The position numbers and the translations under genes are program-made. A DNA stretch of 50,193 nucleotides, filler included, from Jimgerdemannia flammicorona (taxonomy: Eukaryota): the NCBI GenBank assembly GCA_003990765.1. It is 2 parts of 2 records of this genome, joined end to end, with 100 filler letters (N's around TTAATTAATTAA, not from the genome) between each part and the next. Parts side by side here need not be neighbours in the genome. Positions count along the whole stretch, not along the records: positions 1 to 25,052 come from RBNJ01000888.1; positions 25,153 to 50,193 come from RBNJ01000889.1. One strand, 5' to 3'. This document shows, piece after piece, positions 11,407 through 46,652 of this stretch (position 1 is its first letter; the number at the start of each line of letters is the position of its first letter). The notes under the pieces are model-generated. The model worked only from the letters and a program-made list of their open reading frames with translations. It had not been told where the DNA came from and did no database searches.

Positions 11407-12928
11407 TGTCATATAGTGGTCGCTGAGTCCTTCAAATATGCCAGATTCTCTTCAAGATGTATCTCTTAGACTACCTCAAGTTTGTTATAAGCAAGTTCTT
11501 ATTGGAGTACCTTCTCAAGGTCTTATAGTCCTCAAAATTCTTATCTTTAAACTGTCTTGTTATCTTTTAGATTACTTGCAAGAAAGTATGTGTATTGCAC
11601 TAAGTAGGCTGAATGGACTGACTTTATTTCAGAGGAAATAAGAGGAGTATTTATACAAAATATAATTCAATAGTTGCTAAGATATAAAGCTAAATATAAA
11701 TTCCAATAACTAAAATGAAATACAGGACAGGAAAAACTACTAAGTTCCAGGGTCAGTACTGATAGTTGTACAGGTTCAGGATACTGATATAATTCTAGTG
11801 ATATAGGAAAATAGTGCTGGAATAATTCAGTGTTATATCAGAATGCCAGTACTGGCATAACTCAGTATAACAAAGAACTTCAGAGTAGAATTTTCAAGAC
11901 CATAGGGGCTTCATCCTCATTGTTACTGAAGGAGATAAGATCTGCAAATTTGTTGTTATCATACATTTCGCATGCTTCAATATCACATAGGATGATGTCA
12001 TTGCTGATGATGTCATCACATTTGGCAGTGACAGGAAGGAGGTCTGGGGCTCTCCAGTCTATGAGGTTCTCTTCCACAAAATAGAGAACAAATGTGGGTT
12101 CTTGAGGAGGTCTAACCTGGATGCTTGGGCCTTAGAATACTGAGATCAATCTTTGCAGGAATTGGTCTGGGTTGTCCTGGAGGATGGGATACCAGAGGTC
12201 TTCTACTTCATCACTATTGAGAGTAATAGTAGACTGGGCTTCTGTAGCTACTCTGGTTTCTAGTGTATTGATATAGCTGGATGACAGATCTCTGAAATCT
12301 GAGACTCTAATATAATTCAAGTTAGAGATTGACTATGGTGCATGTCTGAAGATCTGATGGATCTTTTTAGCTATCCTTGCTTTACGTATATCCATGAGAG
12401 TGGCATCTTGTAACTCTTGGGGGCTGGCCTGTGGGAACTCCTGGCAGAGGAGGTTTCCTATTTCATACTCCTGCCATATTTGGAGATATTCAGTAGCAAT
12501 GGTGATCCTTGTTTCCATTTCACAGTGGTGGAGAATATAATGATAAGGATCACTAGTACCCATGTTAACACTAGGAGTCCTTTTTGAGTGAGTCCTTATG
12601 GCTCTTCTGATGTTTTGGAACATCCTTTCTTTGACTGAGATGTCTTGGTAGTTCCTTGACCTTGAGGTTTGGTGAGCAGCAGGCATTTCATTTGTGGTAA
12701 GTCTTTGAGCTATTTTGGGATTGGTGGGTCTTGTTGATTGCTGCTACTGTGGTTCCTTGATCCTTCTTTTATATTCCTCAAGATATCTGAACTGTGGTCA
12801 CAATGACTCACAGTTGGTTCTCATTGCTCATCTCATATACCATATGATCTTCTTGTACTCCAATCTGATGGCTTGTAAGGAAAGGCTGTCTCCTGTGCTG
12901 ATGTCATCATTCTAGGGTCACTGTTATA
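11407..12928 (-). repeat. Family A 3' LTR (1522 bp)
   Basis: Direct repeat of 18610-20146. PPT-like aggaggaaaa (12929-12938, minus) abuts it. TATA-like gtataaatac on minus near 11650. Confidence 0.95.
11880..12686 (-). pseudogene. U3-encoded accessory ORF of family A (3' LTR copy), unknown function
   Basis: ORFs 12333-12686, 12132-12320 and 11880-12077 share one frame, 807 nt without indels, the same length as the 5' LTR copy. Homologous to the family B U3 ORF. Confidence 0.75.
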
Positions 12929-13259
12929 TTTTCCTCCTGAATAAGAATCTTCTCAAGTGTCCTTATTCATTGGTCCAGTCCTGAAAAATTTGCTGATTCC
13001 ATAACCTCTAGTAAGGGGTCGAAAAGTGGTATTTATGGGCTGGTGTCTTCCCTATATATTTTGGTGTGATGGTGAAGAGTCACTCCCTTCATATAAAGCA
13101 AGGGCCTGATTCTGATCTTGACCAATCAGTTGATGGTTCGAACTCCTCTAGCTTTAAAAGTCTCATGGATGAGTAGTTGCTAGTAGTATATCCCTTAGAT
13201 AATGGTCCAGACAGATAGCCTACTGGTCATGAGACATGCTGTTACAATTCGCAGACTAG

Positions 13260-14400
13260 AACCTTGTGGGTGGTCATCACATTTTGCTTCTCTTGTATAG
13301 GTTTGTGATACTTCTTGAGTCTGTTTCTGTGCACCATGGTAGGCAGTATGATCCCTGAGATTTTTCTAAGCCAGAAGGTAGTTTCCTTGATATCTTGTAC
13401 ATAGAAGAGTCCTTCCCATTTGGGCTTCAGTTTTTGCAACTATGAGGCTTCTACTATATTTTGATACAGTAGGACCTTTTCTCTAATTTGGATGGATTCT
13501 AGGGTCTTATAATTCTTTTCTGCATTCTTCTTTGTCAGTGCTTGTGATTTGATAATATAATCTTCAGCCTTCTTCCTAATTTAGTGTAGTCTCTGGATTT
13601 CTGTATTAATCCATCTCCAAGTTAGGTCTAGATTTATAGCTGAGGTTCCATCAGAATCTTCTTCTCTGAAGAGCAGTTCCCTTGGGGTAAAGTGTGTACT
13701 CTGTGACCATATATCTTGTAGGACAGAGAGAGCAGTTGGGAGATAATTATCCCAATTCTCATATGTCTCTGAGATCTTCACCAGGATGTTCTTGAGAGTC
13801 TTGTTGGTTCTCTCTGTCTATCCATTTCCTTGAGGATGGTACATGGTGGTCTTGATGTGCTGGATCTTGTATTTCTGATTCATTATCTCATGGAATCCAT
13901 TGACAAATTCTATACCACAGTCTGTTGTGATTTGCTTCAGTGTCTTGTAGTAGCAGATGATTTCTTAGTACAGGAAGTCAGCTATAGAGAGGGCATTGGC
14001 TTCTTGTAATATTCCTGCTTTTATCTATTTGGTAAAGAGGTCTACAATAACTATAATATAGCAGTTTCCTAATAGTATTACTGGTAGTGGCCCAATGATA
14101 TCCATTGCAATGTGGTAGAAGGGGATAGGCTCAATTCTTGATGACCCAGGTACCTGGTCTTGCTGATCATATTTCTGTTTTTGGCACTTGTTATACTCTT
14201 TGACAAATTGGCACAGGTTTTCTTCTATCTTAGGCCACTACATGGTTCTTCTTGCCTTATTATGTATATGTATTGGTTTCTCCTAGGTATCCTTGCTCAT
14301 GTACTTCCTTCATTACTTGATAATTTTTATATTCAAGTATTACTAGCTTTCCTCCTTTTCTGAGTATAGTGTTGTCTAGTTCAAACTGTTTTTAAGTCTG
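13260..14400 (-). pseudogene. Family A integrase with GPY/F C-terminus, no chromodomain
   Basis: IAMDIIGPLP, ITTDCGIEF, MYHPQGNG..ERTNKTLK, WDNYLPTAL, KLKPKWEGLFYV..VHRNRLKKYHK. Confidence 0.9.
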
Positions 14401-14499
14401 GTTGATAATGGAGATTGTCCAGGGTTCAAGGTGGTTGGGCATCTTCTACTGCCCAAGATAGCTGATTAATCCATAGTATAACTCCTTATTCATGTTGAG

Positions 14500-15870
14500 T
14501 AATCTTGATGGAGGTGTTTCAGGGTGTCCTTGAGAGTGCATCAGCATTGGTGTTGGTTCTTCCTGAGTGGTGCTTGACAGTACAGTCATATTCTTACAAC
14601 CTGTAGATCCATCTAATATATATTCCTTTAGGGTTCAGAGTGGGGAATAGCCTGGCAAGAGCAGAATGGTCTGTTTGAATGGTGAAGTGTTTCCTGGCTA
14701 GGTAGTAGTGGAACTTGTCTACTGCCCAAACTACTGCTAAGCATTCGAGCTTGCATAACTCATAGTTCTGTTCTGCTCTACAGGTACCTCAGCTTGCATA
14801 GGAGATGACATATTCATATCCATCTTTCTTCTGAGCTAGGACTGCTCTAAGTCCTATAGCACTCACATCTGTCTGCAGGATGAATTCTAGGTTTCAATCT
14901 GGTCTTCAGAGGATAGGTACTTGGGTCAACCTGGCCTTGAGTTTATTGAAGGTTTCTTGGTGTTCCTTGGTCCATTTGAATTTGGTTTTCTTCTTCAGTA
15001 GCTCATAGATAGGTGCTGCAATATTAGAGTATCCTTTGATGAATCTTCTATAGTAGCTGGCCAGTTCAAGGAAGGCATAGACTTCTGTAGTCATTCTGGG
15101 TCTTAGGTAGGCTACAATAGCCTCAATCTTCATAGAGTCTATGTAGATTCTGGTCTAGTTGATGAGGTGTCCTAGATAGGCAATTTCTTGAGCTACAAAC
15201 TTGCATTTCTTGGGCTTGATGTAAAGGCCATGCTCCTTGAGCTTCTTGAGGGCTAGCTGTATGTGATTGACATATTCCTGTGCAGTATTGCTGAAGATAA
15301 TTACATCATCAATATAGACAAAGAGCCATTTTCCAATCTTGTTGCTGAAGACTCTATTCATCATTTGCTGGAAACTTGCTGGGGCATTATACATTCCAAA
15401 TAGCATTCACAGGTAGATATAGGTGGCATCAGATGTGATGAAGGCTGATTTCTCACTGGCATCTTAAGTGAGACCAATCTGATGGAAGCCTGAGAACAGA
15501 TCCAAGGTGGTGTAGTATTTGGCTTCACTTCCAAGAGTGGTAAGGATTTCTTGAATATTTGGCAAGGGCTGTCTATCCTTCTTGGTGATGGCATTGAGCT
15601 TCTTGTAGTCAATGCAGAGTCTTGGTACAAACTCTCCAGGCTTGCTTCCTTTCTTTGGGGTGAGGACAATAGATGAAGCCCAGGGACTAATAGCTTGCTT
15701 GATGATTCTGGCTTCTTCCATTTCCTTGAGTTTTGCTTGCAGACATTCTCTATAGGCAGGTGGTGTGGGTCTGGCTTTCTGGTAGATGGGCTTGGTATCA
15801 CCAGTGTCAACTTTGTGATAGTACTTGGATTCTTGATTGTGGATATCTCTGAAGTCTGTAGCAAGTACTC
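14500..15870 (-). pseudogene. Family A reverse transcriptase and RNase H
   Basis: SPWASSIVL..RLCIDYKKLN..LDLFSGFHQI, MLFGMYNAPASFQ..VYIDD, FILQTDVS, KLECLAVVWAV, TDHSAL, NTNADALSR. Confidence 0.95.
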
Positions 15871-16004
15871 CTTCATTCTGGTGTAGGATCTTAAGAAGTT
15901 GTTCTTCTAGGGGAAGGTTTTCTCCAATAGTATATGTATGCTTGTTCTGGTCTTTGTCTTTCTTATGTTTAAGTTCAGTAATCTTGGTGGTGGCATAGGC
16001 TCCT

Positions 16005-16400
16005 CTTCCAGTAGATCCAAAGCCTTGTTCTCCTCTCTTAGTCTTGATAAGTTCAATGGCTTCAGTGATCTTGGGTTTCTTAATTTCATGGATCAGCATC
16101 AGGCCAATCCTGTCATACTTCTTGACTTTGAATGGGGTGGTGGAGTTGTGATTCCTGATTATGAGGAAGATCTTGCCAGTGTAATCAGGGTCAATTACTC
16201 CTCCTTCAACTGAGATTTTGCTTTTGGCCAGACTGCTCCTGGTCTTGATAATTCCAGCATAGTTCTCTGGTAGCTTGACTCCAATTCCAGTGCCAAGTAG
16301 AGTGGTAATCTGTGGTTTAAGGATAGCATCTTGAATGCTGGCAAGGTCCATTCCTATGGCTCCTTCAGTCTTGTATTCTGGGGTCTTGGCTTCAGGGTGG
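16005..16400 (-). pseudogene. dut: dUTPase domain of family A pol, between protease and RT
   Basis: MDLAS, TGIGVKLPENYAGIIKTRSSLA, VEGGVIDPDYTG, YDRIGLM, RGEQGFGSTG: trimeric dUTPase motifs, in frame with RT in ORF 15464-16351. Confidence 0.92.
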
Positions 16401-16513
16401 AACTTCTTGACTTTGAGGGTGATATCTGGTTCTTGTTCTTTCTCATCATCACTGTCAGCTTGAAGCTCTGGGGGCTGGTCATCTTCTTCATGTTTCTGTT
16501 AGTGGATTTTCCT

Positions 16514-16630
16514 GACTTCACTGATACAGGACCAGCAGTCATTCAGGTATTCAGAGCAGTACATTCTAGTACCATAGAGGCATCTTCCTTGAGGGGCATA
16601 GCCATTGATAACCTTGTTGTACCACTGCTC
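16514..16630 (-). other. Conserved putative Zn-binding module (C-x-H/Y-x12-C-x2-C) in family A pol
   Basis: EQWYNKVINGYAPQGRCLYGTRMYCSEYLNDCWSCISEV aligns without gaps to family B 36055-36186. Confidence 0.65.
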
Positions 16631-16769
16631 ATCTGTGAGCTTGAGTGTCTTATTCTTATTCTTGTTCTTGTTCTTGTTCACTGAGTACATGAAGACCTCT
16701 GTGTCCTCTTCATCTCCTTCCTCCATGTCTGGTAGAACTCCTTTGTAGACATTGATAGAGACTCATACC

Positions 16770-17120
16770 TTTTTTCCTCTATAGTTGATCTGCATCTTCT
16801 GGGCATTGAGGTCAATGATGGCCTTGGCCTTGTGAGGTCATTGGTTGCCAATAAGGATGTCATAGTTGGTGGCACTTGTAACAATCACATCTACTGAGAT
16901 GGTAGCTCCTCCTATCTTGATGGGGACTTCTCAGATTTTGCCAAGGGAGGTAGCTCATATACCATCTGCTATAACATAGACCATCTTGGTGGACTCTTCA
17001 ATGTCCCAACCTAGGTGGTCAATTGCCTTCTTGCTCATAAGGTATCCTCCTACATTAGTATCAATGATGGCATCAAAGATATAGTCTTTGATCTGACATA
17101 GAGTATAGGCTGATGTCTTG
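16770..17120 (-). pseudogene. Family A aspartic protease
   Basis: AYTLCQIKDYIFDAIIDTNVGGYLMSK (decayed DTG), YVIADG, YDILIGNQ. Confidence 0.8.
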
Positions 17121-17425
17121 CAATGGTCTTCAGATTCTTTACCTGAGTTTTTGGATTCTTCCTGTACATTGTGAGCTTCTACAATATTGTACTCTTGATT
17201 CTTGACAGTAGTTGTAAGTCCTACTCTCAACTGCTGTCTGAAGACAGAGACTTTGGCTAGCTATCCAAAAGTAGCATTGACCTTCTGCTCCTTAAGATTC
17301 TTGTAGATATTATACTGGTGGATCTTGGTCTTGCACAGCTTCTGTTTCTTCTTGCTTTCACTTTTTCCTAAGACTGGAGTAGTGTCTTCAATGATTTGGC
17401 AGGCAGCTTTATCTAACTCCATGTC

Positions 17426-18553
17426 TTAATCAATCTCCTCAGGTTGAGTCTTACTTTGAATAGTGATAGCTAGGGTCTTCTTTGGTCTTCCAACTGGCTT
17501 ACTGTTGCTTTTCTTATCATAGGGCTTGGACCAAGTTCTGATACCTTCAGTAACAGGGTAGAATTTAAGCTTCTCATAGTATTCTTCATCATCAGTATTG
17601 CTAATCTCCTCAATGACTACTATATTAGTTTGTTCTCTAGTTCTACTAGCATTGCTTGGTTGGGCTTTGTGTCTTGTTTCGATTATGTAATTCTTTACAT
17701 AGTGACCTTCTTCTCCACATCTGAAGCATGTGATATTGCATTCTTCTATAGCAGCTACAAATCTCTGCACTGGTCTCCTGTTGGCACTTTGGACTTCTCT
17801 AACAACATTACAAAGGTATGCAGTCATCTCAGCAAACTGCTTGGTAAGTTCCTCCACTGGGTCAGCTTTGGCTGCCTTGGGGGTAGGTGGAGTTGGTTGT
17901 CTGTTTACAACTGTAGCAGGTATGATACTAGTTGGCTTTGATGGCTCCATCTTGATGCCAGTTATTTTTTCCATTGAGTGTTTGGCAGGGTGTCTGGCAG
18001 TCCAATATCTCTGTATAAAGACCACTTTCTGATCAAGGGTCAGTACAGCTGGGGTAGACTGGATTGCTAGGGCAATTTCAGGGTAAACTCCTTTAAGGAA
18101 GGTTGAATCTGCTATTTGTTCCTTGAGGGCATCATCATAGCCAGCCAAGACAATCTGGTGGCAGATTTAGGTATAGAATGAGTTGAGATCTTCACTAAGT
18201 CCCTGGCAGATAGTTTTGAGTTGATCCTTGAAAGCTTGCTTGATCTCTTCAGTATAGTATATTGTTCTGAGGAGGCCTTCATGTTGGCAAGTTTGGCTGT
18301 ACCATTATCAGTAATAGTAGCTATATTGAACTTGTCTCTGGCAGATCCTCTGAGGCTGACTGGTAGAAGGGCTAATTGTACATCCACACCAAGGGCTTGT
18401 ATGGTAGTAAATTGTTCAAAGTCTTCAATGAAGGTCAGGATTGACTCTTCAGTAGTATATCTATAGAATGTGGAGAGATATATTTTTATCTTGTCTTGAA
18501 TTCTTGCAGGGGTGACACTTGTAGTCAGAGTAGTTATTGTGGGGGTTATTCAT
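17426..18553 (-). pseudogene. Family A gag with CCHC zinc knuckle
   Basis: ATG at 18553 just after the PBS; FLKGVYPEI; CFRCGEEGHYVKNY (final Cys mutated to Tyr). Confidence 0.85.
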
Positions 18554-18591
18554 TTTTCAGCTTAAAAGTGAGGGATTCATCTTGAATCACC

Positions 18592-18609
18592 AGCCAATGG
18601 GCACCAAGT
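18592..18609 (-). promoter_or_regulatory. Family A primer-binding site (TGGTGCCCATTGG; tRNA unassigned)
   Basis: TGG (complement of tRNA CCA) 3 nt after the 5' LTR end. Confidence 0.7.
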
Positions 18610-20146
18610 TGTTACATAGTGGTTGCTGAGTCTTTCAAATATATCAGATTCTCTTCAAGGTATATCTCTTAGACTAACTCAAGTTTGTTATAAGCAATTT
18701 CTTATTGGAGTGCCTTCCCAAGGTCTTATAGTCCTCAAACTTCTTATTTTTAAACTGTCTTATTATCTTTTAGATTGCTTGCAAGAAAGTATGTGTATTG
18801 CACTGAGTAGGCTGAATGGACTGACTTTATTTCAGAGGAAATAAGAGGAGTATTTATACAAAATATAATTCAATGGTTGCTAAGATATAAAGCTAAATAT
18901 AAATTCCAATAACTAAAATGAAATGCCAGGACAGGAAAACTGCTAAGTTCCAGGGTTGGCACTGATGGTTGTACAGATTCAGGATGCTGGTATAATTCTG
19001 GTAGTATAGGAAAATGGTGCTGGAATAATTCAGTATTACATCAGAATACCAGTGCTGATATAACTCAGTATAACCAAAGAACTTTAGAGCAGAATATTCA
19101 AGACCATAGGGGCTTCATCCTTGTTATCACTGAAGAAGATGGAATCTGTGAATTCATCATCATTGCACATTTTGCATGCTTCCATATCGCATGGGATAAC
19201 ATCATCACCAATGATGTCATCACATTCAGCAGTGGCAGGAAGGAGGTCTGGAGCTCTCCAGTCTATGAGGTTCTCTTCCACAAAATAGGGAACAAATGTG
19301 GGGTCTTGGGGAGATCTAATCTGGATGCTTGGGCCTTAGAATACTGAGATCAATCTTTGCAGGAATTGGTCTGGGTTGTTCTGGAGAATGGGATGCCAGA
19401 AGTCTTCTACTTCATCACTATTGAGAGTGATAGTGGACTGGGCTTCTGTAGCTACTCTAGTTTCTAGTACATTGATATGGCAGGATGACAGGTCTCTAAA
19501 ATCTGAGACTCTAATATACTTCAAGTTGGAGATTGACCATGATGTATGCCTGAAGATCTGATGGATCTTCTTAGCTGTCCTTACTTCACATATATCTATG
19601 GAAGTGGCATCTTGTAACTCTTGAGGGCTGGCCTGTGGGAACTCCCAGCAGGGGAGGTTTCCTATTTTATACTTCTGCCATATTTGGAGGCATTTGGTAG
19701 CAATGGTGATTCTTGTTTCCATTTAATGATGGTAGAGAATATAGTGATAAGGGTCACTAGTACCTAGATTGGCACTAGGAGTTCTTCTTATGTGGGTCCT
19801 CATGGCTCTTCTGATGTCTTGAAACATCCTTTCCTCAACTGAGGTACCTTGGTAGTTCCTTGACCTTGAGGTTTGGCAAGCAGTAGGCATTTCATTTATA
19901 GTAAGTCTTTGAGCTATTTTGGGATTGGTGAGTCTTGTTGGTTGCTGCTACTGCAGTTCCTTGATCCTTCTTTTATATTCCTCAAGATATCTGAACTGTG
20001 GTCACAATGACTCACAGTTGGTCATCATTACTCATCTCATAGCCTGAGTGAGTCATGCTGTATGATCTTCCTGTACTCTGATCTGGTGGCTTATAAGGGA
20101 TTGCTGTCTTCTGTGCTGATGTCATTATTCTGAGGTCACTGTTACA
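18610..20146 (-). repeat. Family A 5' LTR (1537 bp)
   Basis: tgttaca..tgttaca ends; direct repeat of 11407-12928; followed on minus by the PBS. Confidence 0.95.
19084..19890 (-). pseudogene. U3-encoded accessory ORF of family A (5' LTR copy)
   Basis: Includes ORFs 19336-19722 and 19084-19281 in one frame; 807 nt. Confidence 0.75.
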
Positions 20147-20169
20147 GTATATAAGTTAATGGACTTAGC

Positions 20170-24773: not shown

Positions 24774-25052
24774 GTCACATCTCTCTCCACTACAATTCAC
24801 GTTACACACACTTTTCAACACACTTTCGAAGCATTTATTGGAGAAAAGATACTAAGGCAATGTCAACCAGCAAGCAAGCCGACGTGCGTCCTAGGTCGGG
24901 TGGACCTGGGGCCTTCGACTGGCAGACTGTCGGGAGAGGGTATGGTTTGGGGATGGGGTCCTTCGGTGGCTCGAGTGGGCAGAGCGGCTCAGGCAGTGGA
25001 AGTGGCACCGGTGGGGAGGCTGGAGGGAAGCAGGGGAGGAGCTTTGCGGACA
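24774..25052 (+). mobile_element. L1-like LINE 5' end (5'UTR and ORF1 start at 24860), young CpG-rich copy, cut by the gap
   Basis: Homologous to 46656-46935; MSTSKQADVRPRSGG..GRSFAD. Confidence 0.7.
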
Positions 25053-25152: not shown

Positions 25153-25336
25153 TTGATAGAGGAGACTTCTTCTCCCTCTTTTCAATACCTTTATAAATAG
25201 CAGGCATAGGATCTCCTCTGTATATGATGGTGGTATCAGCCTTGTGGCTGTGGCAGATGGGGATTGGGGTGGATATGACAATAGTGGTGAGCATCACCAG
25301 AAGGATGAAGAAGATGAGGATGTTGGAAAGCTTCAT
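25153..25336 (-). CDS. Small secreted protein / peptide precursor, 3' end lost in the gap
   Basis: MKLSNILIFFILLVMLTTIVISTPIP is a typical signal peptide; repeated IYxG (IIYRG, AIYKG); EKR Kex2-type site; pyrimidine-rich leader upstream. Confidence 0.6.
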
Positions 25337-33930: not shown

Positions 33931-34059
33931 TTGCTTGTCAGTATTATCACTATTCAGGATTTCTCAGAGTGCTTGAGCTTCCTTATTATTGGCACATACT
34001 GCAATAATTTACTCTATAATAGTGTTGGTAACCAAGGTGAGAGTATGGATAACTTCTTC

Positions 34060-35400: not shown

Positions 35401-35689
35401 TAGGCCTTTCAGAAGCTTTTTTGGGAATATGTCTCGAAATTTCTGGAGTAGTGGTCTGACATGGCTGTCAACTTTGGAAAAATCTTCTTCAGAGTTCTCG
35501 GGTTCTCCTTTGGATGGGCAGATGGAGATGGCGAAGAGAGGGCATTTCTTGGCCAATTTCTTGAGTTGTAGCTTATTGATGTGGGTGATCTTTGGTCCAG
35601 GGTCACTAGAACTGAGTGGGTTCTTTTCACCTTACAGTTTGAAGTTGTGGCGTCCTTTCTTGATGGTCAGAGAATAGTTTACCCAATCG

Positions 35690-36000
35690 ATCATGGGGTT
35701 CTCTTGTTTCAACTATGGAGTTTCAAGGATGATTTCATTGTCAGAGAGTGGTACGATCTGGAGGGTAACATGTACTTGATAGTCACCAATTCAGAAGGGT
35801 AGATTGTAGACTTCCTTGCTGATAACATGTGAGGTTCCATCAGCTGTGGCAACTGCTTGAGTTTGTTATACCAGAGAGGTGAAGACCTTAAGTCTGTTGG
35901 CTGTCTCTTCACTGATGAAGTTGCCTGAGGCACCACTGTCTATCATAATCTTGACAGATACTTGATTGACAAAAGCTTTAAGTGTAAGCAGTTTGTCTGA
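35690..36000 (-). pseudogene. B2 aspartic protease
   Basis: KIMIDSGASGNFISE, ATADG, EIILETP. Confidence 0.9.
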
Positions 36001-36054
36001 TCCAATGGTAGTGATTTCAGTTGTTTGACCTTTCCTTCTGTTGGTTCTTCTTTG

Positions 36055-36186
36055 AGCCAGTTCATTGACACAAGAGAAGCAATCATCAATCATTCAGGAA
36101 GAGTACATTCCAATGCCATGAGGGCATCAGCCACTTGATACATATCCATCTTCGATCTTCTTGTAGAATTGTTCTTCTTTGCTCAT
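36055..36186 (-). other. Conserved putative Zn-binding module C-x-H-x12-C-x2-C in family B (second copy 26395-26525, plus)
   Basis: MSKEEQFYKKIEDGYVSSG*CPHGIGMYSS*MIDDCFSCVNEL; the stops are explicable as CGA->TGA. Confidence 0.65.
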
Positions 36187-36204
36187 AGTAGATTGGGCTG
36201 GGGC

Positions 36205-36620
36205 CTTATTCAATGAGCCAAATTCTTTGGATCCTCAGATGGTGGGCAGTAGTTCAGGGACTTCCTTGACTGTCAGGGTTGACTTAATTTTTTCAAATAG
36301 AATCTGGGCAATGCAGAAACCTATAGAGATCTTGAAGAGTGTCCAACTGTGGTTTCAAATGAGGACAATGATTTCGCCTGTGTAATCTTTGTCGATAACT
36401 CCTCCTTCTACTGAGAGTTCTTTCAATGCTAGGCTGCTGCGACAGCATATTCTTCCAACATATCCTTCAGGGATTTGGATGCTGATTCCTGTGTAGACTT
36501 GTTTGACTTCTCAGTTGGAAACTGTAACTTCTTTGGCTGCATATAGGTCATATCCAGCTGCTTTTTGACTTCCTTTGGTTGGGGCCTTAGCAGTTTGTCT
36601 TAACTTGACAAAGTCTAGTG
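36205..36620 (-). pseudogene. dut: dUTPase domain of family B, between the gag zinc knuckle and protease
   Basis: FVKL..AKAPTKGSQKAAGYDLYA, TGISIQIPEGYVGRICCRSSLA, VEGGVIDKDYTGEI, IAQILF, *GSKEFGS. Confidence 0.92.
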
Positions 36621-36649
36621 TTCTGGTGGTCAGGTTGTTGAGATGGTGC

Positions 36650-38450
36650 AGAGTGGTAACAGTTGCTCATATTGCTGTTCAGGGTTTTCAGATAGGGCAG
36701 GCACTGGCCATGTATCCTGTCTTTTGGCAATAGAAGCATACTCTACTTCTTTGAAGTTCATTCCTTTCGCCTTCAGTGAGTTTTTTGAAGGTGCTTGGTT
36801 GGGTGGGTTCATGATTTCTAGGTGTCTAAGAGGTGGATGTGGAGGGAGCTTGGGATGCTTCATGCTTGGGTTCTTCTTTCTTGGTCCAAGTCTTTTCCTT
36901 GTTGTTGAATTGTCTTCAGGGCAGAATTGGTCCAGCTGTTAGGATTTGCTTGACCATAGTCTTGATTCTTGCCAGGCACCATTGTTGGTAATCACAACCA
37001 ACTGGGCAGCCTTGTTCTCAGATTTTTCTAGTAAGCCATTCAGGCAGAGTATTGAATAAATGGTCTGCTCTTGTACCATTTTGTGCTTCATCATTGGCGA
37101 TATATCCTAGGCCAACAGTGTTCAGGAGTAACTTGAGTTTTATACAGAAGGTTTCAAATTCTTCTTTGCCATATACATTAAATTTGAGGTTGCAGAGTTT
37201 TACTCAGGATTCAGCAATCATAGTTTCACTGCGGTATTGGGCAATCATGAGTTGTTTGAGTCCAGGGGCTGCAGGATGGGCTCCATATCCTGGGGTATTA
37301 TTTACTACATTCTGAGCAACTACTGCAGGTCAGGTATCCCATATGAGGGGTTTTTCAGGAAGGGTTCACCACCATTCTTTGGCAGATCCTTGGAAGAATG
37401 TAACAACTCAGCAGACATAGGCTGTAGTGATAGCAAAGAGTTGTTCCAGAGTGTGGTTTTAATTGTTTATCAGAACATGATCAGCAACTCACTCATTGGT
37501 CCATTGATTGGCTTTGAAGTTGATGTCAACTACACTAATGAAGCTTTGGACTTCTTGTGCAGTACCATTGAAGATAGGTAGGCTCAGATTTTTGGTGGGT
37601 CGGGTCTGTTCAGCTAAGGCAGTAATGGTTGCTGCCATTATTGCTACCTGGGCTGTGAGGTCTAGAATCTGTTGGTTTGCTATGTTGTTTACTGGAGGTG
37701 GTTGGACTACTGATAGTAGTATTACTGGTACTACTTGAGGTACTGGTGCAGAGTGTGATAGGGTTCTTTGAGTCTGTATAAGTTGCTAAAGTAGTAGTTG
37801 TAGGTCTGGAGTGAGGGCTTGATAGATAACTGTTTATTGCTATGTAGGTGTATTCTGTCCTGATAGAGGTACTTCTTCTTTAGTGGTATATCCGGGATCG
37901 AATTCACTAAGATACTCCTCCTCTTCTTCGGTTTGGTCCCCATGTAATTGGGTTTGCTCGGCATCAAAGTAGATAGAATTAGTTGTATATCTGATTTCAG
38001 ATAGACTTAATTCAAAGTCAAGTTCAGGTTCAGTATTGGTTTCAGATTCAGATAGGGCTATAACAGAGCCTGCTTCAGGTTCAGGGTCAGGTAGTTGATG
38101 AAGGGTTTCTCTTACTTCTTCTTTAAGAATATGGTGGACCTTGCTGTTCTGGAATCAGTAGTATAATGTGGTCTTGGTCCTGGTACAGTGAAAATTGGTA
38201 GAGTTGAGCTACTTGGCTATAGAGGCTTGAGCTTTATGAGGAACTAAGGCTAGAAAGACTGCTGCTGGTTGTCCTAGATCACTCGGGTTTGTGAAGCTGA
38301 CAAAACTCTTGTTGAGAAGAGTAAAGAAGGCTTCAATAAGACCTTCTTCATCTTGACTTGCTAGGTATAGTGCAAGGAGTTTGGTGAATAGGGCTTCACC
38401 TATTTGCTAGTTTAGTCAGAGTACTTCTTTTTTTGAATAAAGTTTGTCCC
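36650..38450 (-). pseudogene. B2 gag with CCHC knuckle; start approximate
   Basis: CFYCQKTGYMASAC at 36695-36745; LPIFNG..; FNTLPEWL; lies directly downstream of the PBS. Confidence 0.8.
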
Positions 38451-38627
38451 ACTTGTTACAGATGTAGAGGTCAAATTGTCCTTATATATCAGGTTCAATT
38501 CTCTCCAAATTGTCAGATGGTTCAGGATAAATTCCAGTTCAGAGTTTGGGCTTTATACCAACTTGTAGGAATTCTCAGAAGGGTTTATAGCAGGATGAGG
38601 AAGTGTCTTGAAGCAGAATTGAATTGT

Positions 38628-38645
38628 AAACCACTGCTACCAAGT
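38628..38645 (-). promoter_or_regulatory. B2 primer-binding site TGGTAGCAGTGG (initiator-Met-like)
   Basis: 3 nt after the 5' LTR; TGGTAGC is the complement of the eukaryotic tRNAi-Met 3' end, as in Ty1/Ty3. Confidence 0.75.
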
Positions 38646-40714
38646 TGTAAGAGGGTTGCTTTTTAGGGTAACCATTATGTAGTTCTGGAAGGGTTTTCTG
38701 GAAGTTCTGGATGTTCTGGAAGACCATTTTCTTATGGCCAAGATCAATTTCATATGGAGTATATCCTCTGTACTTATTGGTTTCAAGTTTGGGTTGATGT
38801 CTCAACCAAAGTCCTTTTTTGAACTAGTTCTGGATGTTCAGGATTTTCTATATTTCAGGAAGTTTAAGAAACTAAGACCAGCTTAGTTGAATTGGTGTAT
38901 CACTGCTGACAATACCCAATTAGGAAATTTTGTGATGTGATTAGGAGTGGGACCTAATGGGGAGCAGATTTACTTAAGAGTGGTTTGTAGGTTATTAAAT
39001 AGGTTTATTCACTATTCATGATATTGCTATACTAGGAGTAGTTGTGTGAAGGGATATTATGGGAAAGTGCTCAGGAGTTATGTTCGGATTATTCAAGTCT
39101 TTCAAGTCTGAGATTCTGAGGTCTGGGGGAGGGGATATTTATACTAGTGAGGGGCTATCTGGACTATACTAGATATGGATGTAGCACTAAGTGCCTCACT
39201 GAGTCAGAATGCAGTTATATAGTACAAGTGTGATCTGACATATCAAGAGATCATCTGACTGCTGAGTCAGTTCACAGTTACATTGTACAAGGCTAATCTA
39301 ACTATACTATGACTGCTAGGCTATTTATAGGTTTAGACACTGTCTGGGTAGTCTTCGATGATATTACTATCAATTGTATCATCTCTGATGAAGTAGTCAT
39401 CTAGGAAGAGTGGTTCGTGGATTACTTCTCCTTGTTCGCTGAGGTAATAATATATTGGAACTTCATCTCCATTCTACAAGATAGCATCATCAGTCTCATA
39501 TGTTGGATAAGGTATTGGTGGGCAAAGAAGGGGTGCATCATCTTCGCTTTTATTGATTTTGCTATTTGTATACCTTCTAGGTTACAGTACTATGAGTTGT
39601 GGGGTTGTAGTAAGCTGGCGGCTGTAGTTCATATCACTCACACTCAGGTGGTGGAGTGGTTGGTTCAATCTCGAGGGTTGTCTGGAGGTATAGGTTGTAT
39701 TCTCTGGTATCTTTGTTGTAGTTGAAGTAATTGGGGGTAAATGCAGGTTGGTATTTGTGTCAGTGGTCATTATTCCAATAAGTCTTGTATGCTGTTATGA
39801 ATTGTTGTAAGTTCATTAGCAAGGTTGGCAGTGTGATCAGGGTTGGCAGGGATTCTTGGCTTGAGGTCATGTTGGTATCAGAGAAATCATTGTCTTCTGC
39901 TTCATCTTTATTGAAGTAGATTATATTGTAGACATCCTTCATAGCATATCCAACTTGGGGCATTTGTAGGATATGATCATTGAGGTGGAGGAAGGTTCTG
40001 TCTGTGGTTTCAACATACTCGAGGTACTTATGATTGAGTTTTTATATCATGTCATCGATTTGGCCATAGGACAGGGTACAACCATTTCAGCTATGGTAAC
40101 TCAGAGATAGGAGATAACAGTGCTATACTCATAGAAGAGTTCTCAATGTTTGTGGGTGATGAGTTTCTGGTATTGAGACATCTGGGTAATATCTGTATCA
40201 TGGTGGTGTTTGACCATGTCTTCCAGGAGGCAGCCGATCTGGTAGTAGCTTGAAATTTGTCCAATTTGGTAGACCTCGCTAAGTATGTTCAGAGTATTCT
40301 ATCAGGCTTCCACAAAGTAAAGGAGTGCTAGGCTATGGATATTCATGAGGAGTAGAGGAGGTGTGGCTCGGTTGACAATGGCATTCCAAATATCAGTGTA
40401 GATACAGTTGTAGATCTCAGTGGTCATGTTTGTGTGTTGGAAGTTGTGGTTGTTGTTTGTTTTGGTTCTCTGTTTCGATGTGTCTCGGTGCTCAGTATAT
40501 GTACATTTGGTCCTGATTGGTAAGATTCTGTTTATGTGGATCTTGTGTTCTGTGACTTCATATTGACTCAGCTTTGTGCGCTGTGACTTCAGTTTGACTC
40601 AGCTTCATGATCAAGCAGGTGATTTCCAGATTTGTTCAGAGGTCGCGTGTGATTTCAGTGGCTTGTTCAGAGGGTGATATGTAATTTCAGTGGCTTGGAG
40701 GTTGTGCGCTTACA
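38646..40714 (-). repeat. B2 5' LTR (2069 bp), with U3 ORF copy at 39333-40427
   Basis: TGTAAG..CTTACA; direct repeat of 30060-32128. Confidence 0.97.
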
Positions 40715-42612
40715 GTTACCAACTCTATCATAGAACAAATTATCACAGCATGTGCTGATAATAAGGAAGCTCAAGCACTCTGAGAAATTCTGAACAGTAA
40801 TGATGCTGACAAGCATACCTGGTACCATCAATACCAACTGAAGAATAATACTATCTACTATAAGGACAGACTATATGTTTCAAACAACTAAGACCTCTGA
40901 AGAACTATTCTATTCGAATGTCATAATGCCCCTATAGCTGGACATTTAGGATTTGATAAATGCTATGAAGTTATCTCTCAGAACTTCTATTGGTCTCACA
41001 TAGCAGATCAGCTCAAGACCTACATTACTTCTTGTGATGCCTGTCAATAGAACAAGTCCTCAACACCAGCAAAACCTGATCTACTCCACTCTATCCCAGT
41101 ACCATCTGCTAATTGGGAACAAATCTCTATAGACTTCATTGTACAACTACCCTGAACCAAGAATGGGAAAGATGCAATTGTTGTCTTTGTAGATTATCTC
41201 AGCAAACAGACCCACTTTGTGCCAACTACTACTACTGTAATAGCACCAGACATAGCCACACTCTTGTTTGACAACATCTTCTGCTATCATGGTCTTCTTA
41301 AAATCATTGTTAGTGACTGAGATCTGAAATTCACCAACCATTTTTAGAAAGCCCTCCATGCATACCTTGGAATAAAACTTGCACTATCCACAGCCTTTTA
41401 CTCTGAAACTGATGGCCAAACTGAAAGAATGAACTGAACTCTAGAACAAATGCTAAGGAACTATGTTTCCTACAGACAAGATGATTGGTATGAACACCCC
41501 ACTACAGTCAAGTTTGCCTATAACAACAGTAAGTAAGCCTCTCTGGGAATAACCCTATTTTTTGCCAATATAGGACAAAACCCAAACACCCCTCTGACAC
41601 TTATCCAAACCACTGATGAACTCTCCACAGTTGAAGCTGTTGAAAAATTCCTGCTCTGAATATGCAATCTAAGCCAGATTACAATCAAGAATTTATCATA
41701 AGCTTAAGAACAACAGACATAGTATGTCAATCAATACCATCAAGAAGAGACTTTGGATATTGGAGAAAAAGTTCTACTAGATATCCAAGGATACTGAGTT
41801 GACAACCTCAAGCATAAACCATCTACCAAGCTGAATAGCAAGTTTATTAGACCATTCAAAGTCATTGCACAAGTCTCTCCTACTTCCTACAAATTAGCAC
41901 TACTAGATACTATTAAGGTTCATCCAGTCTTTAATGTTCAATATCTTAAGCAATATAATGAAAACAATGATGAACTATTCCCAAACTGAACCATGGAACT
42001 ACCTGTACCTATCATAATTAATGACCAAGAAGAGTATGAAGTTGAACAAATCCTCAACAAACATGGTAACAAGAACCACCCTGAGTACCTTGTCAAATGG
42101 AAAGGTTACCTGATCCATGATGCAACATGGGAACCCAAGACCAATCTCCAGAATGCCACTGACTTAGTTCAGGAATATGATTCCTTGAACAACTAAAACT
42201 GAACATCTGACACCTATCAGTATATATTATATATTACTCTTCTGAACATTATAATTATCACAGACAAAATCAAGAACTCAGCAAGTCAAGACAAAAGAAT
42301 ACCAACTCTCTAGAAAATTAGCAAAACTGAAAGTAAGCTTATTCTCCCTATATCACTAGTGAGAAATGAGGTGTAGACATTTAAGAAGATTCCTTAGAGG
42401 AAATTCTCTAGTAATAAATAACATCAGAATCACTTCCAGTGAACACATGACCCTTTAACATATGAATCCAATACATTAGGCAACTGTATTACAAGCATGC
42501 CACTTTCTGAGAAAAATGGACTTTAAGACTTTTGACCTTCCAAATAGTGTAACAATACTAGAACAAATTAGAAGACTCTGATGAGGACATCAAAAGCTAA
42601 GAAGGGGAGAGT

Positions 42613-44703
42613 TGTAAGCACACAACCTCCAAGCCACCAAAACCACATATTATCCTCTGAACAAGCCACTGGAATCACATGCAACCTCTGAACAAATCTG
42701 GAAATCACCTGCTCAATCATGAAGCTGAGTCAAACTGAAGTTACAGCACACAAAGCTGAGTCAACAAGAAGTCACAGAATACAAGATTCACACAAATAGA
42801 ATCTTACTAATCAGGACTAAATATATATATACCAAGCACTGAGATACATCAAACAAAGAATCAAAACAAACAACAACTACAACTTCTGAATATATACAAA
42901 CATGATCACTGAGATCTACAACCACATACATGCTGATATTTGGAATACCATTATCAACTGAGCTACACCCCCTCTGCCCCTCATGGATATCCATAGTTTA
43001 GCATCCCTCTACTTTATGGAAGCCCAATGGAATGCCCTGAATATACTTAGCGAGGCCCACCAAATCAGACAAATCTCAAGCTACTACTACCTCAGCTGCC
43101 TCTTGGAAGATATGGTCAAACACTACTATGATATAGACATTACCCAGATGTCTCAACACTAGAAACTTATTGTCTGCAAATACTGAGAACTCTTCTATGA
43201 GTACAGCACCTTTATTTCCCATCTCTGAGTTACTATCAGTAAAATGGTTGCTACCTTGTTCTATAGCCAAATCGATGACATGATACAAGAACTCAACCAC
43301 AAGTACCTTGAATATATTCAGACTACAGACAGAACCTTCCTACACCCTGATGACCATATTCTACAAATGCCTCAAGTCAGATATACAATAAAGGATATCT
43401 ACGATATAATCCAATTTGATGAAGATAAAGCAGAAGACAATGATCCCTCCAATGCTAACATAACCTCTAGCCAAGAATCTCTGCCAACTCTGATCACTTC
43501 ACCAATCTTGCCAATGAACTTATAACAGTTCATAACTACCTATGAGACCTATTGGAACAATGATCACTGGTACAAATACTAACTTGCATTTACCTCTAAT
43601 TACTTCAACTATAATGAAGAGACAGGAGAATGCAACCTGTACCTTCAGACAACCCTTGAGATTGAACCAACTACTCCACTACCCAAGTATGAGTGACATG
43701 AATCACAGCTACCAGCTTACTACAACCCTATAACTCATAGTGCTATAACCTATAGAAGGTATGCAGACAGCAAATCTGATGAAAGTGAAGATGATACATC
43801 ACTCCTTAGCCCACCAATGCCTTATCTAGTATATGAGACAGATGATGCTATTCTGTGGGATGGCAATGAAGTTTTAATATATTATTACCTCAGTAAACAA
43901 GGAGAAGTAATCCACAAACCACTCTTTCTAGATAACTACTTCATCAGAGATAATATCATTAATAGTGATATCATTGAAGACTATCCAGACAGCATCTAAA
44001 TCTATAAATAGCTTAGCAGTCATAGTATAGTTAGATTAGCCTTGTATGATATGACTGTAAACTGACTCAGCAATCAGATGATCTCTTGATATGTCAGATC
44101 ACACTTATACTACATGACTGTATTCTGACTCAGTAAGGTACTAAGTATTACATCCATATTCAACATAGTCCAGATAGCCCCTCACTAGTATAAATACCCC
44201 CTCCCCCAGATCTCAGAATCTTAGACTTGAAGATATAAATAGACTTGAACACTTGAACAATCTGAACACAACTCCTGAGCACTTCCCCACAATATCTCTT
44301 ATATAACTACTCCTAGTATAGTAATATCATAAATAGCAAATAAACCAATTTAATAATCCACAAACTACTCTTAAGTAAATTCACTCCCTGTTAGGTTCTA
44401 CTCCTAACCCCATCATAAAATTTTCTAATTGGATATTATCTGCAGTGATATGCCAATTCAACTAAGCTGGTCTTAGTTTCTTGAACTTCCTGAAATATAG
44501 AAAATCCTGAACATCCAGAACTAGTCTGAAAAAGGACTTTGGTTGAGATGTCAACTTGATCTTGAAATTAATAAGTATAGAGGATATACTCTATACAAAA
44601 TTGATCTTGACCTTAAGAAAATGGTCTTCCAGAATATCTAGAACTTCCAGAAAACCCTTTCAGAACTATGTAATAGTTACTCTAAAAAGTAAACCCTCTT
44701 ACA
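42613..44703 (+). repeat. B1 3' LTR, with U3 ORF at 42902-43999, TATA-like site ~44188 and AATAAA ~44339
   Basis: Follows the PPT at 42599-42612; tgtaag..cttaca; reverse complement of the B2 LTRs. Confidence 0.95.
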
Positions 44704-46652
44704 CCCAGCCTCTTCCCTACTTCTATCCAAAAGTCCCCCAAAATCTCACACTCTCCCAGCCAATGTTCCAGCATCTGCACAAATCCCCCAACTTGTCCTA
44801 TATTATAACACTTCTCACAATCTAATTGGCTACCTTCTACCAAATGCCCTATATAGAAGTTCAACATAATATTCCTCTGCAGCATTCTTTACCATATTAT
44901 CCAGAATTTGGGAGGAAGCCACCTCAAGAGAGACCCTTCATCAACAACCTGACCCTGAACCAGAAGTAGGCCCTGCTATAGCTCTACCTGAACCTGAAAC
45001 CAATACTGAACCAGAACTTGACTTTGAATTAAGTCTTTCTGAAATCAGATATATAACTGATTCTATCTACTTCAATGCCAAGCAAACCCAACTACATAGA
45101 GACCAAGCTGAAGAGAAGGAGGAGTATCTCAGTAAATTCAATCCTGGATATATTACTGAAGAAGACACACCTCCATCAGGACAGAATATACCTACATAGC
45201 AATAGATAGCTATCTATGAAGCCCTTAACCCAGACCCACAACTACTACTCTAGCAACTTACACAGACTTAAAGAACACCCTCACACTCTGCACCAGTATC
45301 TCAAGTAGTACCAGTAATACTACTATCAGCAGTCCAACTACCTCCAGTAAACAATATGGCAAACCAACAGATTTTAGATCTTATAGCACAAGTAGCAATA
45401 ATGGCAGCAACTATTATTGCCTTAGCTGAACAGACTTGACCTACCAAAAATCTGAGTCTACCTACCTTTAATGGTATTATACAAGAAGTCCAAAGCTTTA
45501 TTAGTATAGTTGATACTAACTTTGAAGCCAATCAATGGACCAATGAGTGAGTTGCTGACTGCCTTCTGACAAATAATCAAGACCATACTCTGGAATAACT
45601 CTTTGCTACTACTACAGCCTATGTCTATTGAGTTGTTACATTCTTTCAAGGACCCACTGAAGAATAGTGGTGAACTCTTTCTGAAAAATCCCTCACATGA
45701 GACACCTGACCTATAGTTGTTGCCCAAAATGTAGCAAATAATACTCCAGGATATAGAGCCTATCCTACAGCCCCTGGACTGAAACAACTCATAATTGCTC
45801 AATACTGCAACAAAACTATGATTGCCAAATCTTGAGTCAAACTCTATAATCTCAAATTTGATGTATATTGCAAGGAAGAATTTAAAACCTTTTGTACAAA
45901 ACTCAAGTCACTCCTAAACACTGTTGGTCTAGAATATATTACTAATGACAAAGTACAAAATGGTACAAGAGCAGACCATCTATTCAATGCACTACCTGAA
46001 TAGCTTACAAGAAAAATCCAAAAACAAGGATGCCCAGTTGGTTGTGATCACCAACAATGGTATCTGGCAAGAATCAAGACTATGGTTAAGTGAATTCTAA
46101 TAGTTAGACTAATTCTACCCCAAAGACAATTCAATAACAAAGAAAAGACTTGGATTAAGAAAGAAGAACCTAAGCATGAAGCATCCTGAGCTCCCTCAAT
46201 ATCCATCTCATAGATATCTAGAAATCATAAACCCACCCAGCCAAGTATCTTTAAGAAACTCACTAAAGGAGAAAGAAATAAACTTTGAAGAAGCAGAGCA
46301 TACTTCTATTGCTGAAAGACAGGACACATGACCAGTGTCTGCCCTAACTAAAAACCCCAAACAGCAACATGAGTAACTATTACTACTCTGTACTATCTCA
46401 ATAATCTGACCACTAGAACACTGGACTTTGTCAAGTTAAGACAAACTGCCAAGGCCCAGTCAAAAGGCAGCTGGATATGACCTATATGCAGCTGAAGAAG
46501 CTACAGTTTCCAACCAAGAAGTTAAGCAAGTCTATATAGAAATTAGTATCCAAATCCCTGAAGGATATGTTGGAAGAATATGCTGTCACAGCAGTCTAGC
46601 ATTGAAAGAACTCTCAGTAGAAGGAGGAGTCATTGATGAAGATTATATAGGC
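44704..46652 (+). mobile_element. Family B fragment B3 (gag to mid-dUTPase), host of B1 and cut by the LINE
   Basis: 44927-46652 is collinear with B2 gag/CCHC/dUTPase. No PBS follows the preceding LTR, so that LTR belongs to B1. Confidence 0.85.

Follow-up and report, generated by a model that had tools for sequence, protein, structure and literature searches.

The stretch of DNA analysed here, 50,193 nucleotides (nt) of Jimgerdemannia flammicorona (GenBank assembly GCA_003990765.1) and called the window throughout, carries three groups of long terminal repeat (LTR) elements, whose LTR pairs and nesting were read from a self-comparison of the window. Two of these families, A and B, are the main subject of this work. 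They are Ty3/Gypsy retrotransposons of deeply separate lineages, each with a dUTPase in its polyprotein, a long open reading frame (ORF) in the predicted U3 (unique 3') region of its LTR, and a small Cys/His module that is the one specific link between the two. An earlier note on this DNA had read these parts as a toolkit exchanged between lineages and kept together, possibly as counter-defence. The two halves of the window meet at an artificial contig join (25053-25152, unstranded) built as N44-TTAATTAATTAA-N44, a six-frame-stop linker of the contig-joining kind, so that element A and the nest of B elements come from one assembly and their genomic neighbourhood is not shown.

Element A, defined by its LTR pair and by Pfam matches, is a decayed Ty3/Gypsy retrotransposon on the minus strand (11407-20146). 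Its LTRs of about 1.52 kb are 87.9% identical over 1536 nt; the 3' LTR (11407-12928) is preceded by the polypurine tract (PPT) AGGAGGAAAA, and the 5' LTR (18610-20146) is followed by the primer-binding site (PBS) region ACTTGGTGCCCATTG. The internal order is gag, CCHC knuckle, protease (PR), Cys/His module, dUTPase, reverse transcriptase (RT), RNase H and integrase (IN), all on the minus strand. The gag CCHC knuckle lies at 17693-17731, the position of the true gag knuckle, and is followed by the protease (16811-17107; a weak Pfam match at E 0.003, below the curated cut-off), the Cys/His module (16493-16642; found by tblastx and by a hidden Markov model, HMM, of the module), a dUTPase of the trimeric type between PR and RT (16007-16393; PF00692, E 4.4e-25, with matches in the PDB), and RT with RNase H (14588-15655; RVT_1 E 1.8e-29, RT_RNaseH_2 E 6.8e-30). 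The integrase core (13833-14126; rve E 7.8e-6, below the curated cut-off) stands in another frame, reached through a frameshift. Pfam was run on translations of A and of the B copy named B1 below, with stops written as X, and in both the domain positions give the PR-RT-RNase H-IN order of Ty3/Gypsy elements. Paired TG..CA LTRs, PBS, PPT and target-site duplication (TSD) complete this assignment, with two caveats for A: its LTR begins TATAAC in the 3' copy and TGTAAC in the 5' copy, and its 4-bp TSD, ATAC/GTAT, fits only when two transitions are allowed.

A gap is seen within A beside the Cys/His module. At 16488-16497, some 36-39 nt that occur in contigs from the public sequencing runs X2 and X3 are missing from the window copy, and the protein P0001, a member of the A family, has matching extra residues at this site, between the module and an acidic linker. 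Loose contig ends at 16488 in runs X1 and X5 may reflect the same gap, which reads as a deletion private to the window copy or to its subfamily.

Family B is present as a nest of copies. The longest, B1 (30060-40714, minus strand), was delimited by self-comparison and Pfam, and holds its coding region in a single frame with many stops, in the order gag, CCHC knuckle, dUTPase, Cys/His module, PR, RT, RNase H, IN, SH3 and chromodomain. Its 3' LTR of 2069 nt (30060-32128) and its 5' LTR (38646-40714) are 89.6% identical over 2073 nt. The dUTPase (36214-36591; PF00692, E 2e-30, with PDB matches) stands straight after the gag CCHC knuckle and before PR, and the Cys/His module (36037-36183; module HMM, E 7e-31) lies between dUTPase and PR. 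The remaining Pol domains, PR, RT, RNase H, IN and chromodomain, occupy 32566-36000, all on the minus strand; Pfam gives RT at E 2.9e-30, an integrase zinc domain, a Tf2-type SH3 and, at the integrase C-terminus (32566-32712), a chromodomain (PF00385, E 5e-13), the arrangement by which chromoviruses are recognised. B1 is inserted into B2, a copy on the opposite strand, with the 5-bp TSD ATTAC/GTTAC, and the 5-nt overlap of the two B2 halves agrees with this. By self-comparison the 5'-truncated B2 is a plus-strand copy broken into three parts (25395-26857, 28362-30059 and 40715-44703), with its own copy of the Cys/His module at 26398-26544 (plus strand, by module HMM), and it is further split by a solo B LTR (26858-28361). 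A last fragment, B3 (44926-46652, plus strand, by self-comparison), runs from gag to the middle of the dUTPase and ends where element C begins.

An RT-RNase H tree of 70 rows was built by a quick method under LG+G4, with support from the Shimodaira-Hasegawa-like approximate likelihood ratio test (SH-aLRT); its rows were drawn from 147 proteins aligned over 380 residues or more, taking those numbered up to P0075 and all that bear a dUTPase, 79 of the 147 being left out. B falls within a chromovirus clade of 42 rows (SH-aLRT 100), in agreement with its database relatives, which are chromoviruses. A falls outside that clade, in a set of 18 rows (SH-aLRT 97) that mostly lack a chromodomain, the precomputed Pfam annotation giving one in two of them, P0023 and P0024. 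The closest relative of A is P0001, of its own family (85% identity); the others are Gypsy polyproteins of at most 42% identity, most of them without a chromodomain and several from animals. Pfam at E<=0.01 gave no chromodomain in any of A's three sense frames, and with its RT outside the chromovirus clade A does not count as a chromovirus. The separation of A and B within Gypsy is deep. The core differences listed in the earlier note are largely borne out: the RT strings SPWASSIVL (A) and SPYGAPVLF (B) are both present, the chromodomain is confined to B, and the PBS regions differ, with PPTs in place. Its contrast of TSD lengths is sound for the 5 bp of B1 and, for the 4 bp of A, depends on the two transitions mentioned above. 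The same note had named a sister relationship of A and B as the finding that would speak for simple inheritance, and the tree sets them far apart.

Between these lineages, the Cys/His module stands out. It is about 47 residues long, with the common ligands C-x-H-x13-C-x2-C in both families, and a tblastx comparison of A with B1 recovers it at E 6e-10, which bears out the earlier note in giving both elements the same CxH-CxxC unit. The window copy in A is decayed (CLY..C..Y..DCWSC), and its intact relative P0001 reads CPH..C..H..DCWSC. The intact cores are EQWYNKIINGYAPQGRCPHGTRMYCSEHLNDCWSC in P0001 and EQFYKKIKDRYVPSGRCPHGIGMYSSRMIDDCFSC in P0040, identical at 19 of 35 positions by BLASTP, a level that the RT of the two proteins reaches only in its best-conserved part; by our own count, 22 of 47 residues are identical over the whole module of these two proteins. 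In a six-frame translation of the window the module HMM matches only the A, B1 and B2 copies given above, and among 172 fetched proteins it matches two, P0001 and P0040, with the next best at E 0.12. The module is not an ordinary gag knuckle: its spacing differs from the C-x2-C-x4-H-x4-C of the CCHC family (PF00098), and no Pfam match covers it in the A or B1 translations. Searches for a structural relative gave, in the PDB, designer pentatricopeptide repeat (PPR) proteins, whose scores are sums of repeats of about 3 bits each, and a tristetraprolin finger at E 0.015, which were judged artefacts; in the ESM Atlas the best score for the module was 0.81, below the meaningful level.

Vertical descent does not readily account for a module common to two deeply separate lineages, yet found in two of 172 proteins. 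In both families the module is flanked by PR and dUTPase, with their order swapped: the dUTPase follows it in A and precedes it in B. Since it occupies opposite sides of the dUTPase, and of PR, it moved with neither neighbour as a block. Weighing against this reading, the 172 proteins were picked by similarity in RT or dUTPase and cover no whole genome, which limits what can be said of the module's absence elsewhere. The module could have reached A and B from a common source, by recombination between co-packaged RNAs of co-resident elements or by way of a third element, and with no more than about 47-54% identity between the two versions, such a transfer would not be recent. Another route is a host gene, and in one rival account a single host gene supplied the module twice, once to A and once to B, without any transfer between elements. 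The opposite placement of the module would suit this account as well, as no joint block movement is implied. The searches speak against it: no host-like protein with the module came from Pfam, the PDB search gave artefacts and the single match at E 0.015, and the Atlas scores stayed at or below 0.81. We regard such independent uptake from one host gene as unlikely, and a common source among elements is preferred, with recombination, a third element and a host gene all possible as the path. By analogy with the NC part of the betaretroviral NC-dUTPase, the module might be a zinc knuckle and hold the dUTPase, or else a processing intermediate, on nucleic acid.

The dUTPases tell a different story. 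Both domains pass PF00692 with ease (88.4 bits for A and 105.6 bits for B, against a cut-off of 22), their best PDB matches are dUTPases, and the motifs AxGxDL, RSS, GGVIDxDYxG, RIGQ/IAQ and RGxxGFGS, defined here as commonly given, were seen by eye in P0001 and P0040. A and B encode a dUTPase domain of the trimeric type; the window copies carry stops and cannot be active. The domain stands between PR and RT in A and between nucleocapsid (NC) and PR in B. The earlier note had pointed to a common signature; the presence of the enzyme in both families stands, and the signature turns out to be partly generic. When its pattern was checked in 20 proteins, two gave no match, SVEGGVID was also found in P0042, P0045 and P0053, and DYTG in P0160-P0162. 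The A and B domains are 42% identical, a pairing that ranks eighth of 19 for B and tenth of 19 for the A family. By phmmer, A and B match each other at 73-80 bits; B scores 106 bits with P0041 and 88 bits with the solved chain 3p48_A, a cellular dUTPase that we take to be yeast Dut1, and A scores 99 bits with P0036, 80.6 bits with a shrimp dUTPase and 53.8 bits with 3p48_A. By these scores the two domains are as close to other dUTPases, whether of transposons or of cells, as to one another, or closer. In a dUTPase tree of 20 rows they are not sisters, and the partner of B is P0041, with weak support (80/77). On this evidence their histories look separate.

Some points weigh against that separation. 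An approximately unbiased (AU) test does not reject a clade of the A and B dUTPases (p 0.25), and the tree was built without cellular fungal dUTPases. This p value and the poor resolution of the tree indicate that the domain is too short to decide the matter, and the two may yet share an origin.

The wider set of relatives shows how freely the domain is placed. Among 13 dUTPase-bearing Gypsy relatives, the layouts dUT-PR-RT (P0040, P0041 and P0044), PR-dUT-RT (P0042, P0045, P0070 and P0098) and IN-dUT (P0036) all occur; P0001, of the A family, has dUT-RT with a PR seen by eye only, and P0053, P0069, P0081 and P0113 have dUT-RT with the N-terminus cut off. In the RT tree, the dUTPase-bearing rows lie at four separate places within the chromovirus clade. 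The Cys/His module is missing from 11 of these 13 proteins, so that accessory modules do occur independently of one another, and the proposal that they are retained together is not supported. The Copia-type polyproteins P0161 and P0162, with RVT_2 and gag_pre-integrase domains, also carry a dUTPase. The DYTG motif of P0161, P0162 and P0036 resembles the version in A and B, and sharing of the dUTPase may extend across superfamilies of LTR retrotransposons.

The third accessory part is carried in the LTR. In A, an ORF of 268 codons with two internal stops lies on the minus strand in both LTR copies, at 11880-12686 in the 3' LTR, where it starts MPAAHQ, and at 19084-19890 in the 5' LTR. Both copies belong by profile to a protein family comprising P0167-P0171 and the metagenome locus L001, the family HMM matching 11883-12623 of the 3' copy at E 2e-104 and the 5' copy at E 5.5e-102. 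A search of 1.84 billion representative sequences returned six proteins at E<=1e-3, four of them at E<=1e-30; identities to the A ORF are 75% (P0167), 66% (P0169), 43% (P0168), 36% (P0170) and 31% (P0171), and the sixth match, P0172, is a low-complexity repeat. A metagenome scan with the family gave 155 pattern matches and one confirmed locus, L001, a contig of 1535 nt without context that holds an uninterrupted family member of 291 codons. Scans of viral contigs with the A family alignment and with the B ORF found no relatives. Across eight sequences there are 13 invariant columns and the motifs WHEYEIGH, AKKIHQIFRH and PILQDNPDQFLQ. Conservation extends to the start of the gene: between A and L001, 41 nt at the start codon and leader are 83% identical, against 64.5% over 231 coding nt, and TATAAAAG lies 80-90 nt upstream of the ATG in both. 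Downstream, about 230-250 nt past the ORF, the A LTR has TATAAA at LTR position 1274 and AATAAA at 1301.

The rival to a gene is that the LTR ORFs are open frames that arose by chance in long LTRs. It can draw on the absence of any Pfam match for the A LTR proteins at E<=0.1, on an AlphaFold model of the A protein with a mean pLDDT (predicted local distance difference test) of 41.5, too poor for a fold search, on an ESM Atlas search with P0170 whose best score, 0.88, is below the meaningful level, and on the failure to find a relative of the B ORF, described below. For A, chance is refuted by relatives at 31-75% identity, by the intact frame of L001 and by the 13 invariant columns. For B, four stops in 422 codons equal the stop density of its decayed pol, and the other two sense frames have 50 and 56 stops. 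We consider chance frames very unlikely, and on its conservation the A LTR ORF is a real gene of a small conserved family. Its protein ends in an acidic C-terminal tail with repeated hydrophobic motifs that, speculatively, recalls activation or adaptor tails. In both LTR copies the ORF is broken by a stop at the same codon, VF*GPS (12132-12134 and 19336-19338), where the relatives have Gln; this stop was either already in the inserted copy, or the same C>T change happened twice.

In B, the corresponding ORF was found from stop maps of the B1 3' LTR (30744-32012, minus strand; 422 codons, first Met at 31841). Its frame holds four stops over 1268 nt, against the 50 and 56 per 2069 nt in the other two sense frames. 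It has no detectable relative in the searches made and no Pfam match at E<=0.1. TATAAA at LTR position 1575 and AATAAA at 1709 lie downstream of it; the ORFs of A and B both end about 200-230 nt before TATAAA, with AATAAA nearby, and these signals would place both ORFs in U3. The B ORF is analogous in position to that of A, and not detectably related.

The earlier note had described the two U3 ORFs as homologous. That both LTRs hold a long sense ORF is correct, and the homology is not supported: tblastx of the A and B LTRs gives a best E of 0.14, mostly in antisense frames, the A family HMM scores -2.4 bits on the B LTRs of the window, placing the B ORF outside the A-type family, and hhalign of the two ORFs gives E 0.13 (probability 0.46%), or 0.53 (0.10%) with fuller alignments. 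It may still be that the two are true homologues that diverged and decayed beyond detection, in which case A and B would share a U3 gene. Several observations lean that way, and weigh against our preference for separate ORFs. Both ORFs occupy the same place, in sense, beginning about 115-250 nt inside the LTR and stopping some 200-230 nt short of the TATA box. The B1 3' LTR ORF taken alone scores 5.3 and 4.0 bits against the A HMM and beats nearly all shuffles (6 of 500, 7 of 2000 and 21 of 2000 reach it). Motif pairs line up in order, namely YEIGHxL/YQIGHLL, NSxEVED/NEDKVED, PILxDNxDQF/PILLMNLQQF and DDVIDDVI/DDVIDGDVI, and blastn gives a 28-nt match between the LTRs at E 6.6e-5 in a small search space. 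These shuffle scores and the motif order suggest that a very distant kinship is possible. Set against them, the B2 copy scores at shuffle level (1633 and 1628 of 2000 shuffles match or exceed it), the motifs were picked by eye once the sequences had been seen, the 28-nt match consists of a periodic GAT/GAC/ATC stretch, and the lengths are unequal, about 270 codons in A and 422 in B. With the hhalign probabilities and the tblastx result counted as well, hidden homology is unlikely, and we prefer that each family carries a U3 ORF of its own.

The same periodic stretch explains a further claim, that of twin sites like the cAMP response element (CRE) in both LTRs. The canonical CRE, TGACGTCA, has no match anywhere in the window, so that the claim fails in its strict form. 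The degenerate octamer TGAYRTCA occurs 15 times against 5.6 expected, and many of these are one LTR site counted in each copy: in A there are two in the 3' LTR (11993 and 12008) and one in the 5' LTR (19212), and in B one site in three of four LTR copies. The octamers, many of them within codons for DD(V/I)I, belong to a periodic GAT-GAC-ATC run of codons rich in acidic residues (DDIISNDII in A, DDVIDGDVI in B), and the presence of this 28-nt stretch in both A and B accounts for the earlier impression of ORF homology.

Every copy in the window is dead. The pol frames of A and B1 have one stop per about 70 codons, the LTR mismatches are almost all transitions (159 of 176 in A, 208 of 212 in B1), and CpG observed over expected in the window is 0.09. 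Small shares of the window's words were found in public soil-metagenome runs and in one organism run. Where contigs of four such runs (three soil metagenomes and one organism) were compared with A, the window mostly has A or T where the contigs have G or C; in run X1, 234 A>G and 169 T>C make up 403 of 507 differing places. This bias indicates that the window copy is the C>T/G>A-mutated version of a family which those samples contain in abundance. With B2 taken as the outgroup, the LTR mutations could not be given a direction, because parallel changes made T>C and C>T appear equally often.

We can now weigh the toolkit reading as a whole, in which dUTPase, zinc module, U3 protein and CRE sites move between Gypsy lineages and are kept as counter-defence against methylation or deamination of repeats. 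It has real points in its favour: the far-apart lineages A and B share the Cys/His module, both have a dUTPase and a long U3 ORF, and the genome is extremely CpG-poor with transition-mutated repeats. Sharing across deep lineages, in particular, holds for the Cys/His module. The dUTPases are not specific kin and lie at different Pol positions, the U3 ORFs are not detectably related, a canonical CRE is absent, and most dUTPase-bearing Gypsy proteins lack the module. As for counter-defence, C>T/G>A changes are heavy in all copies of the window, so that there is no sign of protection from repeat deamination. The dUTPase hydrolyses free dUTP, and by established enzymology it cannot prevent the deamination of cytosines in integrated DNA. 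Taken together as a package, the toolkit reading is highly improbable.

The explanation that we hold to be probable, with moderate confidence, is that A and B are separate, dead lineages with their own dUTPase gains, a Cys/His module from a common source and their own U3 ORFs. The window holds a nest of dead Ty3/Gypsy elements from a CpG-depleted genome, probably of a soil fungus, on two contigs joined by a linker, in which A (without a chromodomain) and B (a chromovirus) represent old, separate lineages. Each would have gained a trimeric dUTPase at its own Pol position, PR-dUT-RT in A and NC-dUT-PR in B. By extension from retroviral dUTPases, the enzyme would keep dUTP low during cDNA synthesis, leaving less uracil in the cDNA. 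The module would have reached both from its common source, and each family would carry its own long U3 ORF, the two without detectable kinship. In A, the upstream TATA would drive an mRNA internal to the LTR and ending at the LTR poly(A) site, and with its own TATA and conserved leader each LTR could be a small gene cassette. TATA-like strings are common in AT-rich decayed DNA, which weighs against the promoter part of this proposal. Of all this, the analysis demonstrates the anatomy, the identity of the domains, the distance between the lineages, the homology of the module and the conservation of the A ORF family; zinc binding, the direction and mode of exchange, promoter use and every protein function are proposals.

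A bolder version would make the long LTRs self-contained gene cassettes, with their own promoter and the LTR poly(A) signal, expressed from 5', 3' and solo LTRs alike; the A protein, built of a helical core and an acidic tail with repeated hydrophobic motifs, would serve as a regulator or an adaptor to host factors, and unrelated, co-resident families would trade small Pol modules such as a Cys/His knuckle that anchors the dUTPase. We hold this to be unlikely and offer it as a speculation. If true, it would amount to a modular accessory repertoire not described for fungal retrotransposons.

The rest of the window holds element C and a few side loci. Element C (46661-50193, minus strand), recognised by self-comparison and Pfam, is a chromovirus with IN, SH3 and chromodomain (PF00385, E 2.6e-14) that runs off the end of the window. 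It has a tail of 1.7 kb, in which a Ser/Thr/Pro-rich ORF of 219 codons (47042-47698, minus strand) lies between the chromodomain and a 273-nt repeat. This ORF has no Pfam match at E<=0.1, and the tail shows no similarity to the A and B LTRs below E 0.004, the matches at that level being in mixed frames. The repeat, 46661-46933 matching 24778-25050, is cut off at the contig join. The earlier note had given C a short LTR without an ORF as a contrast to A and B; the repeat is truncated by the join and the 219-codon ORF stands directly upstream of it, so this contrast is lost, and C too may carry an extra or LTR-borne ORF. Beside the truncated end of B2, a short ORF on the minus strand (25153-25336) starts MKLSNILIFFILLVMLTTIVISTP, with a hydrophobic, signal-peptide-like beginning, and continues into the contig join; a gene for a small secreted protein may have its 5' end here. 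A DNA transposon may have left a remnant at about 10265-10435 on the minus strand, where Pfam weakly matches the dimerisation domain of hAT transposases (PF05699, E 6.4e-4, under the curated cut-off). An internal direct repeat with a period of about 200 nt (9582-10094; 72% identity over 331 nt) overlaps an ORF of 188 codons (9567-10133).

Much of what is described here has precedent. Novikova et al. (2010, PMC2864245), in the passages considered here, describe families of the basidiomycete Postia placenta whose dUTPase is N-terminal in Pol, C-terminal in it or placed between PR and RT, and suggest independent acquisition of dUTPase for fungal Gypsy families. Among PosPlaTy3-3, -4 and -5 of Postia placenta, elements of Phanerochaete chrysosporium and Tmt1 of Tuber, the dUTPase position varies in those passages, matching either the N-terminal site of B or the PR-RT interval of A (PMC2864245). 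The positions in A and B fit this published picture of repeated, position-variable gain. Unlike the fungal comparison elements of the same passages, A is not a chromovirus. These passages mention no Cys/His module beside the dUTPase and no ORF inside an LTR; a figure legend of the paper names an 'additional ORF' of unknown function. Rodriguez et al. (2017, PMC5408684), in the parts drawn on here, describe rotifer elements with a dUTPase between PR and RT, with an extra zinc knuckle after it in Juno. According to those parts, the bdelloid elements Juno, Vesta and TelKA live in animal hosts, and their extra ORFs are ORF3s downstream of pol and not internal to the LTR.

The whole is mostly known biology with two small new features, the shared Cys/His module and the conserved gene borne in the LTR of A. 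As dUTPases of fungal Gypsy elements are already known, the dUTPase part adds little. The module, common to two unrelated, co-resident families and adjoining the dUTPase in both, is a clean and testable case of module sharing between lineages, and this sharing may be new; so may the conserved LTR-encoded protein family in a Gypsy element without a chromodomain.

Outside the Gypsy elements, the closest layouts are retroviral. The betaretroviruses, among them mouse mammary tumour virus (MMTV) and Mason-Pfizer monkey virus (MPMV), have a gag-pro layout with an NC-dUTPase fusion. B is like them in placing its dUTPase straight after the gag CCHC knuckle and before PR, and unlike them in having no frameshift organisation and no G-patch. 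The spacing of the Cys/His module is not that of a CCHC knuckle, and the sequence relation to the betaretroviral NC-dUTPase is that of the dUTPase fold family only.

Accessory genes inside LTRs are known from the textbook case of MMTV, whose sag is an ORF in the U3 of the LTR. A phrase search of the literature, which returned mostly MMTV results, gave no LTR-internal accessory gene described for fungal retrotransposons. The A and B ORFs would be like sag in that each would be a sense, protein-coding ORF in U3, duplicated with the LTR, and they share no sequence similarity with it, as judged by the lack of a Pfam match. Unlike MMTV, the elements described here are retrotransposons without env, probably of a fungal host, and inside the LTR the A ORF is apparently served by a TATA box of its own and a conserved leader.

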